A stretch of 8,189 nucleotides of DNA from Escherichia coli (GTDB lineage: Bacteria; Pseudomonadota; Gammaproteobacteria; Enterobacterales; Enterobacteriaceae), in NCBI RefSeq assembly GCF_003334305.1, contig NZ_QOWS01000044.1. The stretch is one strand, 5' to 3'. Position numbers and translations under genes: made by a program. Below are positions 3,787 to 7,067 of this stretch, one piece after another. The notes under the pieces are model-generated. The model searched no databases, was not told the origin of the DNA, and was given only the letters and a program-made list of their open reading frames with translations. Positions within the stretch are counted from its first letter, which is position 1. Every line of letters starts with the position of its first letter.

Positions 3787-5121
3787 TTATTTCTGCAATT
3801 CCATACGTTTAATGTCGCCAACTACGAAGAGGTAGCAGACCATCGCCATCAGCGCTGAACATCCCACGAAAACCAGTGCTGCATTGAAGGAGTGCAGTTC
3901 ACTTACCAGGTAGCCAATCACCAGTGGAGTGACAATGGAGGCAACATTGCCAAAGACGTTAAAGACGCCGCCACAGAGGCCAACAATCTCTTTCGGCGCG
4001 GTGTCAGAAATCACCGGCCAGCCCAGAGCACCAAATCCTTTGCCAAAAAAAGCCAGCGCCATCAGCATGACCACCAGCGTGGTGTTGTTGGTGTAGTTAC
4101 ATAAGATGATGGTGGAAGCCAGCAACATTCCCAGCACAATCGGTAGCTTACGTGCCAGGGTCAGGGATAAACCGCGTTTGATCAGATAATCCGAGAAGAC
4201 ACCTCCCAGCACGCCGCCCGCAAAACCACACAGTGCCGGAATCGAGGCGACCAGACCCACTTTCAGAATCGACATGCCTTTTTCCTGCACCAGATAAATC
4301 GGGAACCAGGTGAGGAAGAACCAGGTGATGGTGTTGATAAAATATTGTCCGAAAAATACGCCCAACATCATGCGGTTAGAGAGCAATTGCTTGATGTAAT
4401 GCAGTTTGGGACCGCTTGCTGCCGCGCTGCCCGGCTTTTTGTGGTCCATATCGACCACCGCGCCATTTTCAGAGATAAACTTCAGCTCTTCCGCAGACAT
4501 ACGTGGGTGATCTGTCGGGTTATGAATCAATTTGATCCACAGCGCCGTCAGCACAAAACCAATCACCCCCATAACGGTAAAGACGTGCTCCCAGCCCCAG
4601 GCGAAAGTCAGCCAGCCAAGCAGAGGCGAAAAGAGCGCCAGCGAGAAATATTGCGCCGAGTTAAAGATGGCGGAGGCAGTACCACGTTCTTTCGTCGGGA
4701 ACCAGGCGGCGACAATACGGGCGTTCGCCGGGAATGATGGCGCTTCCGAGAAGCCGAGCATAAAGCGCATAAAGAACATGGAGATCCCTGCCCAGGCCAG
4801 CGGGAACATATCAACAAAGCCTTGCAGGAAAGTGAATAGCGACCAGAAAAAGAGGCTATAGGTATAAACTTTTTTCGAGCCAAACTTATCAAGCAGCCAG
4901 CCGCCGGGGATTTGCATCAGCAAGTAGGCCCAGCCAAAAGCAGAAAAGATGTAACCCATCGAAACCGCACTTAACTGCAACTCTTTTGCCACTTCGGTAC
5001 CAGCAATAGACAGCGTTGCACGATCGGCGTAGTTAACGGCGGTAACAATAAAAATAATCAGTAATATTAAATAGCGGGTATGCACGCCTTTCTTTTTTTC
5101 GTCAACGGTGTCCAGAATCAT
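3787..5121 (-). CDS. garP: Galactarate/glucarate/glycerate transporter, MFS superfamily, 444 aa
   Basis: 444-aa ORF, highly hydrophobic with multiple predicted transmembrane helices typical of an MFS anion:cation symporter. GAGG Shine-Dalgarno about 7 nt upstream of the ATG. First gene of the minus-strand operon. Confidence 0.92.
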   Translation of the reverse strand: MILDTVDEKKKGVHTRYLILLIIFIVTAVNYADRATLSIAGTEVAKELQLSAVSMGYIFSAFGWAYLLMQIPGGWLLDKFGSKKVYTYSLFFWSLFTFLQGFVDMFPLAWAGISMFFMRFMLGFSEAPSFPANARIVAAWFPTKERGTASAIFNSAQYFSLALFSPLLGWLTFAWGWEHVFTVMGVIGFVLTALWIKLIHNPTDHPRMSAEELKFISENGAVVDMDHKKPGSAAASGPKLHYIKQLLSNRMMLGVFFGQYFINTITWFFLTWFPIYLVQEKGMSILKVGLVASIPALCGFAGGVLGGVFSDYLIKRGLSLTLARKLPIVLGMLLASTIILCNYTNNTTLVVMLMALAFFGKGFGALGWPVISDTAPKEIVGLCGGVFNVFGNVASIVTPLVIGYLVSELHSFNAALVFVGCSALMAMVCYLFVVGDIKRMELQK

Positions 5122-5495
5122 TTTATTTACCTCGGGTACTTATGCTGATTTTTATTATTATGGAGAAGGTGTTATTTATGAGTTTCATTTATGCCGTAAC
5201 GGCAATGAACTCGGGAATTAGTATAAGCAGCGCGAGAATAATAATCATTGTGCAAATGCTAATTTAATTAATACTATTTAAATATTATTTTGAGCATATG
5301 CACATAAGGTTGCGCGCTAAAGCACAGATTTGCGCTTTACCTTGCCGGGCGGCACTGCAATCCCTGAAATGATTGACATTGATCACATTTCTGCGTTTAA
5401 ACTCCTGACATTCTTATTTCACCCAATGAAGTCATTTATTTTTAAATGAGACCAGGTCCTCATTTTAATAACCCCTGGCTGGAGAATATTGCACA
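5122..5495. promoter_or_regulatory. Divergent garP / garD intergenic control region (AT-rich)
   Basis: 374-bp non-coding spacer between divergent starts. It holds a very AT-rich tract (about 5240-5300), a TTGACA at 5373-5378, and several palindromes. The gar genes are known to be controlled by the CdaR (SdaR) activator, but I cannot place its sites with certainty. Confidence 0.6.
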
Positions 5496-7067
5496 ATGGC
5501 CAACATCGAAATCAGACAAGAAACGCCAACTGCGTTTTATATAAAAGTTCACGACACAGATAATGTGGCAATTATTGTTAATGATAATGGCCTGAAAGCA
5601 GGAACGCGTTTTCCGGATGGGCTGGAATTAATTGAACATATTCCCCAGGGGCATAAAGTCGCATTGCTGGACATTCCGGCTAATGGTGAAATTATTCGTT
5701 ATGGCGAAGTGATTGGTTACGCCGTGCGTGCAATCCCACGCGGAAGCTGGATCGACGAATCAATGGTTGTACTACCGGAAGCGCCGCCGTTACACACGCT
5801 GCCACTGGCAACCAAAGTCCCGGCCCCCTTACCGCCGCTGGAAGGATACACCTTTGAGGGCTATCGCAATGCCGATGGCAGCGTGGGCACCAAAAACCTG
5901 CTCGGCATCACCACCAGCGTCCACTGTGTGGCAGGCGTGGTGGACTATGTAGTAAAAATCATTGAACGCGATCTGCTACCGAAATACCCGAACGTCGATG
6001 GCGTGGTGGGGCTGAATCATTTGTACGGCTGTGGCGTGGCGATTAACGCACCGGCGGCAGTTGTGCCTATTCGTACCATCCACAATATTTCGCTGAACCC
6101 TAACTTTGGCGGCGAAGTAATGGTGATTGGTCTGGGTTGTGAAAAGTTGCAGCCTGAGCGCCTGCTGGTCGGCACGGATGATGTGCAAGCTATTCCAGTA
6201 GAAAGCGCCAGCATTGTCAGTTTGCAGGATGAAAAGCATGTCGGTTTTCAGTCCATGGTCGAGGATATTTTGCAGGTCGCCGAACGCCATCTACAAAAAC
6301 TGAATCAACGTCAGCGAGAAACCTGTCCGGCTTCAGAACTGGTTGTCGGCATGCAGTGCGGTGGCAGCGATGCCTTTTCTGGCGTAACGGCAAACCCGGC
6401 GGTTGGCTATGCGTCTGATCTACTGGTGCGCTGCGGCGCAACGGTGATGTTCTCAGAAGTCACGGAAGTGCGTGACGCGATCCATCTGCTGACACCACGC
6501 GCAGTGAACGAAGAGGTCGGCAAACGGCTGCTGGAGGAGATGGAGTGGTACGATAACTATCTCAATATGGGAAAAACCGACCGCAGCGCCAACCCTTCGC
6601 CGGGCAACAAGAAAGGCGGTCTGGCAAACGTGGTAGAGAAGGCACTCGGCTCCATTGCTAAATCGGGTAAAAGCGCAATTGTTGAAGTGCTGTCGCCCGG
6701 TCAACGCCCGACTAAACGCGGATTAATTTACGCCGCGACGCCAGCCAGCGATTTTGTCTGTGGCACGCAACAGGTGGCTTCGGGTATCACCGTGCAAGTG
6801 TTTACGACCGGTCGTGGTACGCCGTACGGCCTGATGGCGGTACCCGTCATTAAAATGGCGACCCGCACCGAGCTGGCGAACCGCTGGTTTGATTTAATGG
6901 ATATTAACGCGGGCACTATCGCCACCGGCGAAGAAACCATTGAAGAGGTGGGCTGGAAGTTGTTCCACTTTATTCTCGACGTCGCCAGCGGGAAGAAGAA
7001 AACCTTCTCGGATCAATGGGGGCTGCATAACCAGCTGGCAGTGTTTAACCCGGCACCGGTGACCTGA
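5496..7067 (+). CDS. garD: Galactarate dehydratase, 523 aa
   Basis: 523-aa ORF starting [26 protein letters not shown], with an SAF-like N-terminal domain and altronate/galactarate dehydratase family body. GGAGA Shine-Dalgarno at 5480-5484. Confidence 0.93.

Follow-up and report, generated by a model that had tools for sequence, protein, structure and literature searches.

The gar and gud genes of Escherichia coli offer the closest described system to the locus examined here. Transcription of garD, garPLRK and gudPXD reportedly depends on a common activator, CdaR (also SdaR), according to work by Monterrubio and colleagues in 2000. A role for CdaR as common activator of gar and gud has also been described elsewhere (PMC4551912). 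In addition, CRP Footprint-seq places a high-affinity CRP site with its centre at genome position 3275166 (position 5380 below), with a Kd of ca. 1.9 nM and with garP and garD as the associated genes (PMC12871828). The DNA treated here belongs to this known CdaR/CRP-controlled divergent garPLRK/garD control region: the location is the same, and there is no difference in kind.

Within this region lies a short, hydrophobic open reading frame (ORF), and two further kinds of described feature invite comparison with it. The validated small membrane proteins of E. coli, which have at most 50 codons and were established by tagging and by initiation-complex ribosome profiling, resemble the ORF in size, in having an ATG behind a purine-rich run, in their intergenic sites and in hydrophobicity. 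Unlike them, however, the ORF is not conserved outside one species group, shows no synonymous bias, lies over a promoter-like region of the opposite strand, is missing from the MG1655 annotation and, in its 29-amino acid form, has no clean hydrophobic helix of 20 residues. De novo ORFs that arise in T-rich intergenic DNA, mainly in yeast, are known to yield transmembrane-like peptides. The E. coli ORF is similar to these in being lineage-specific, in the loss of an ancestral stop, and in having a T-rich coding strand that specifies a peptide rich in Ile, Phe and Leu, the plus strand being T-rich because it is the complement of the A-rich garP leader. Expression, and sometimes fitness effects, have been shown for the yeast-type ORFs, whereas the E. 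coli ORF is known from its sequence alone.

The window, by which we mean the whole 8,189-nt stretch of E. coli DNA that was analyzed, comprises the gar locus in the arrangement garKRLP / garD-prlF-yhaV. The ORF is situated in the spacer of 374 nt (36% G+C) that separates the divergent garP and garD genes. Window coordinates are obtained by subtracting 3269786 from those of NC_000913.3; the ATG at 5178 is thus MG1655 position 3274964, and the stop codon ends at MG1655 position 3275053. The features discussed below are collected in Table 1. We conclude that the 29-codon (or 41-codon) frame is very probably an accidental ORF of recent origin that overlies the predicted promoter and leader of garP.

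Table 1. Annotated and predicted features of the garP-garD region, in window coordinates
Feature	Position	Strand	Remarks
garK, garR, garL		minus	
garP	3787-5121	minus	
Predicted garP 5' leader, ~90 nt	5122-5212	minus	5' end placed from the -10
41-codon form of the ORF	5142-5267	plus	same frame, from in-frame ATG 5142
SD-like purine run GGAGAAGG	5162-5169	plus	AAGG 8 nt upstream of ATG; run 8-12 nt upstream
29-codon ORF	5178-5267	plus	ATG 5178-5180, TAA 5265-5267
Stem-loop at predicted garP leader 5' end	5180-5212	minus	complement is ORF codons 1-12
Likely garP (garPLRK) -10, TATACT	5225-5220	minus	AGTATA on plus strand; under ORF codons 15-16; 98 nt upstream of garP ATG
Box 1, TTAGCATTTGCACAATG	5246-5262	minus	consensus TGAGC-N7-CAATG; under ORF codons 23-29 (IIVQMLI)
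Box 2, TGAGCATATGCACA	5291-5304	plus	inverted copy of box 1; outside ORF; conserved across genera
Box 3, TGCGCGCTAAAGCACAGATT	5311-5330	plus	consensus TGGGCGCTGATGCACAGATT; similar form, conserved; outside ORF
CRP site, aaTGTGAtcaatgTCAATcat (minus-strand letters)	5370-5391		103 nt downstream of ORF stop
garD	5496-7067	plus	
prlF, yhaV		plus	

The reading frame and its chance expectation

A sequence-only reading of the window had proposed a possible small membrane protein of 29 codons, preceded by a Shine-Dalgarno (SD) sequence. Its coordinates for the purine run, start and stop proved right, as did the codon count, the peptide (MSFIYAVTAMNSGISISSARIIIIVQMLI on translation) and, by gene context, the placement between garP and garD. 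Two in-frame ATGs further upstream, at 5142 and 5160, were missed; the first gives the 41-codon form and the second a version of 35 amino acids. Some GenBank records, all of them for E. coli, list the 41-amino acid version under the automatic name "putative membrane protein" or "hypothetical protein," and the 90%-identity protein cluster likewise has only E. coli members, all with automatic names. No feature is annotated at the ORF in MG1655 RefSeq, nor does any annotation fall under 5135-5275 in 60 PGAP-annotated E. coli genomes spanning the identity range. A search of the peptide against NCBIfam gave no match to a described protein family at E values up to 10. The promoter scan detected no plus-strand promoter-like site upstream of the ORF (5000-5178), and no terminator-like structure was found after it. 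Viewed on the minus strand, the SD-like run is part of the predicted garP 5' UTR.

The ORF does possess a start, a stop and a plausible ribosome-binding site. The frequency of such frames was estimated from 2000 dinucleotide-preserving shuffles of the 374-nt spacer, read in six frames. An ATG-initiated ORF of at least 29 codons was present in 83% of the shuffles and one of at least 41 codons in 47%, while an ATG that was both preceded by an SD-like 4-mer and followed by 29 or more codons before the stop occurred in 13%. The ORF is within chance expectation for the spacer. Codon usage was scored with the seven genes of the window as reference, taken as 202 thirty-codon windows. At 0.48, the codon adaptation index of the ORF is lower than in all 202 of these neighbor-gene windows, and its log-odds per codon is lower than in 99.5% of them. 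The rare codons that the earlier reading had listed, three ATA and one AGA, are all there, and one CTA can be added. Codon usage so unlike that of the host is nonetheless weak evidence, because genuine small proteins sometimes use poor codons too.

Hydrophobicity is the one real asset of the proposed membrane protein, for which coding is otherwise unsupported. The GRAVY score is 1.52 for the 29-amino acid form and 1.74 for the 41-amino acid form; ORFs from the shuffles average 0.17 (sd 0.51), with 0.3% reaching 1.52, and in 27 orthologous spacers the highest score of any of the 49 ORFs with 25 codons or more is 1.43. The peptide is therefore more hydrophobic than its composition predicts, and this is the single feature that favors coding. 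Part of the excess may arise because the plus strand complements the A-rich leader and the AT-rich promoter spacer, in which in-phase runs of ATT and ATA would be read as Ile in the sole frame that is free of TAA. The 29-amino acid form has no unbroken hydrophobic stretch of ~20 residues, because N11, S12, G13 and R20 interrupt it.

Conservation of the frame in Escherichia and other genera

Two sets of sequences were compared. The first consisted of the aligned spacers of 80 garD loci, one genome per species, most of which have garP divergently oriented upstream. The second, restricted to Escherichia, contained 12 E. coli genomes (the window strain, MG1655 and ten diverse complete genomes), the E. 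coli reference contig L080, E. whittamii and E. albertii. Of the 12 E. coli genomes, 11 have an open frame, as do L080 and E. whittamii. In the twelfth genome, that of E. coli Ecol_AZ147 (NZ_CP018995.1), the ORF is truncated by an IS1A inserted at the equivalent of ~5234. This element lies between the garP -10 region on one side and the upstream boxes and CRP site on the other, and it probably uncouples garPLRK from its activator sites.

In E. albertii, ATA replaces the ATG, codon 13 (GGA, 5214-5216) is TGA, and additional stops and an indel of 1 nt break the frame further. Disruption of the frame in close relatives, which the sequence-only reading had named as the outcome that would tell against its small protein, is thus what this species displays. 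None of the 25 other aligned genera has an orthologous ORF. TGA at 5214-5216, within "TCGTGATTCAGTATAAT," is the usual state in most of them, including Citrobacter, Enterobacter, Klebsiella, Pseudocitrobacter, Pseudescherichia, Trabulsiella and others. Because TGA is found both in E. albertii and in most other genera, the GGA of E. coli is the derived state, and the ORF originated by loss of this stop after the E. albertii split. The alignments thus point to a recent stop-loss product that is restricted to the E. coli lineage.

The synonymous bias that the earlier reading had suggested looking for in relatives is not seen among the substitutions. Changes within E. coli and E. whittamii amount to three synonymous and four non-synonymous, with an expected synonymous fraction of 0.21 (binomial P ~0.16), and protein databases hold the further amino acid variants F->S, S->R, S->I and M->I. 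Differences between E. coli and E. albertii number 3/2/3 per codon position in 5205-5264 and 5/4/5 in 5178-5204, and so lack codon periodicity. Between genera, the N-terminal half (5160-5205) allows no alignment at all. The SD-like run is similarly unalignable in E. albertii (TTTGATGA) and in other genera, and it varies even within E. coli, being GGGGAAGG in K-12, GGGGAAGA in O157, and GGTGAAGG or GCGGAAGG elsewhere; apart from that of O157, the variants consist of GGAG, GGGG, GGTG or GCGG, followed by AAGG. Codon 8 of the 41-codon form (5163-5165), which is inside the putative SD, encodes E, G, V or R depending on the strain. Polymorphic sites are sparser within the ORF (0.069 per nt) than in the remaining spacer (0.127 per nt), a difference explained equally well by promoter constraint, the invariant stretch being box 1 plus the -10. 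No polymorphism was observed at 5234-5268 in the Escherichia sample.

When the frame is set by AGTATA and followed in all species, the open stretches range from 7 to 108 codons and share neither start nor end. Salmonella enterica subsp. arizonae has a 39-amino acid ORF in the same frame (L037, 2154-2273), which was weighed as a possible case of conservation and rejected. The only residues in common are those over the DNA boxes (SI.., RIIIVQMLI); the middle is unrelated, and length and stop differ. This ORF is a coincidence of the conserved boxes. In the same region of S. arizonae (L037, 1972-2500), garP is absent and garL directly follows AGTATA and box 1, with a leader of ~226 nt; since AGTATA and box 1 are present without garP, the promoter module has been kept without the transporter gene. 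Among the genera generally, the segment around the predicted garP start site (5205-5219; plus strand ATGAACTCGGGAATT, other genera ATGAAATCGTGATTC) is conserved beyond start-site needs. It contains an ATG and a variable TGA/GGA/AGA codon, through which short ORFs appear and disappear from genus to genus.

We consider it quite improbable that the frame encodes a young hydrophobic microprotein of 29-41 amino acids specific to E. coli and E. whittamii, created de novo by the TGA->GGA change and produced from an antisense or pervasive plus-strand transcript over the garP leader. That the frame is open in E. whittamii and in every non-disrupted E. coli sampled carries little weight at 95-100% identity, and the non-synonymous variants are at least as numerous as the synonymous ones. 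An SD-like run and an ATG exist, but the run is polymorphic, a stable inverted repeat adjoins the start codon, and the promoter scan gave no plus-strand promoter-like site upstream; moreover, the ORF sits across an active-looking divergent promoter. Its hydrophobicity exceeds both the composition-matched and the orthologous-spacer nulls, yet the 29-amino acid form lacks the unbroken stretch of ~20 residues, and the codon usage is the worst of the window. Finally, the gene callers of some submitters predict the protein, whereas the RefSeq annotation of MG1655, which already includes many validated small proteins, does not have it. An accidental frame over regulatory DNA remains the reading that we prefer, and the next section describes that DNA.

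Predicted promoter elements and candidate operators in the garP-garD spacer

The most strongly conserved bases under the ORF are AGTATA (5220-5225), the plus-strand form of the likely garP -10. None of the six varies in the aligned genera (25 of 25), and 71 of 79 loci carry the hexamer at a distance of 150-420 nt upstream of garD. The plus-strand base that follows, which would be T6 of a plus-strand TATAAT, is T, G, A or C among genera and G in E. coli. Because this would-be critical T6 varies while AGTATA is invariant, the constraint fits the garP strand. TATACT provides what a sigma-70 promoter for garP should have, namely a conserved -10 in the orientation of garP and suitably far upstream of it. 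At the -35 position, the sequence ATGATT is poor (3/6 matches) and lies under a conserved activator box common to co-regulated promoters, as is also expected for a promoter of this type. Between the -10 and box 1 the sequence is unconstrained, as for a spacer. Placed from the position of the -10, the garP start site would be at ~5211-5213. The conserved bases beneath the ORF match promoter-type DNA motifs and not codons.

The predicted garP leader begins with a stem-loop, with GAGUUCAU/AUGAAACUC as outer stem and GCCG/CGGC as inner stem. The first 33 nt of the leader fold at -11.3 kcal/mol (z = -3.35) in E. coli and at -8.6 kcal/mol (z = -2.98) in E. whittamii; at the equivalent place, E. albertii has an 8-bp stem of partly different bases (-6.1 kcal/mol, z = -1.3). 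The stem-loop might stabilize the mRNA or might represent a protein-binding inverted repeat. It would also fold in plus-strand RNA, directly past the ATG of the ORF. The position of the -10 and this stem-loop together bear out the earlier remark that the ORF overlaps an inverted repeat and the garP leader on the opposite strand. A search of 5000-5600 against Rfam, on both strands, matched no family, and a known riboswitch or small RNA was therefore rejected as an explanation. At the other end of the leader, the garP SD, GAGG (plus-strand CCTC, 5130-5133), is conserved in the aligned genera.

Box 1, which overlaps the -35 position, combines high information content with a fixed spacing from the -10. 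CdaR is the most likely activator to bind there, a candidate assignment that was made because garD, garPLRK and gudPXD have CdaR in common. Boxes 1 and 2 form a symmetric inverted repeat of 12 nt with 92% complementarity (5249-5260) and a centre near 5277. All three boxes are related, sharing TG[A/G]GC-N7-CA.., and the elements at 5249-5262, 5291-5304 and 5311-5330 are candidate CdaR operators.

The promoter of gudP, which encodes the paralogous transporter, has a similar layout in MG1655. Its TTATACT is identical to that of garP and aligns with it in register, and in both promoters TTGCAC stands 24 nt upstream of TATACT (TTGCAC-N24-TATACT). The 14-mer TGAGCATNTGCACA, even with up to 3 mismatches allowed, is absent from the gudP upstream region and was dropped as a common CdaR operator; only its inner half, TTGCAC, in register with TATACT, was therefore counted as common. 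With its -10-like hexamer and upstream boxes, the ORF spacer looks like an activator-dependent promoter, and the layout at gudP is alike.

These data also bear on the possibility that the ORF region, itself non-coding, lies inside a longer garP 5' UTR, transcribed from a promoter upstream of it that is close to the CRP site and to boxes 2 and 3, with AGTATA and box 1 serving as RNA or operator elements. The garP start is placed by position only, and with the CRP site centred at 5380, class I or class II spacing could lead to a leftward start near 5318-5340. Against this, the six invariant bases are an exact match to a -10, the TTGCAC spacing recurs at gudP, and the sequence from the -10 to box 1 is unconstrained in the manner of a spacer. 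We regard such an arrangement as a shade less probable even than the young microprotein, and we continue to place the predicted garP promoter directly under the ORF.

On the garD side, the CRP site is conserved across genera as GTGATC-N4-ATCACATT. The motif CCTGACATTCTT (5402-5415), 20-30 nt downstream of it, is almost invariant across genera and probably belongs to the core promoter of garD, with CTGACA (5405-5410) as a -35-like element; no convincing -10 for CTGACA was identified at garD. The garD SD is conserved among genera. Two irregularities were noted on this side of the locus. In Citrobacter amalonaticus S646, the spacer measures 525 nt, compared with the usual ~380-420 nt, as a result of a ~130-nt insertion, perhaps a small repeat element, that separates garD from the region of the CRP site. 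In E. coli 042 (NC_017626.1), garD is annotated as a frameshifted pseudogene.

Least probable of the alternatives is that garD has a long 5' UTR in which the ORF, as an upstream ORF or leader peptide, regulates the translation or transcription of garD: the two share a strand, with 229 nt between the end of the ORF and the garD ATG, and a perfect plus-strand TATAAT (5222-5227) in most genera makes some rightward transcription conceivable, but a transcript from that hexamer would start near 5234, inside the ORF, the E. coli version is TATAAG and so misses the key T6, the CRP site, CTGACA and the garD SD are all downstream of the ORF and suggest a nearer garD promoter, and the ORF, which no terminator-like structure follows, is unconserved while the regulation of garD is conserved.

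Origin and significance of the frame

The preferred reading, an accidental frame over the garP promoter and leader, would account for the ORF as follows. The frame would have arisen in the E. coli lineage inside non-coding regulatory DNA that acts on the opposite strand. Its codons 1-12 would be the complement of the leader hairpin, within the 5'-terminal ~35 nt of the garP mRNA; codons 13-14 would be the complement of the garP start region, and codons 15-16 that of the -10 hexamer. Codons 17-22 would fall in the unconstrained AT-rich spacer, and codons 23-29 would correspond to box 1 at the -35 position, most likely the point at which CdaR contacts the garP promoter. Most likely, the ORF does not represent a real gene. 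The sequence-only reading had itself leaned toward a non-coding interpretation, and the chance rate, the codon usage and the broken frame in relatives all support it in this.

The ORF shows how AT-rich promoters can yield frames with an SD and an ATG that mimic small membrane proteins and pass some annotation pipelines. Should the ORF prove to be translated, it would provide a dated case of an E. coli ORF born de novo. As a by-product, the analysis provides an anatomy of the garP-garD control region, comprising a likely garP -10, three boxes, a leader hairpin and a measured CRP site, which could be of use in dissecting promoters of the CdaR regulon or in designing glucarate biosensors.
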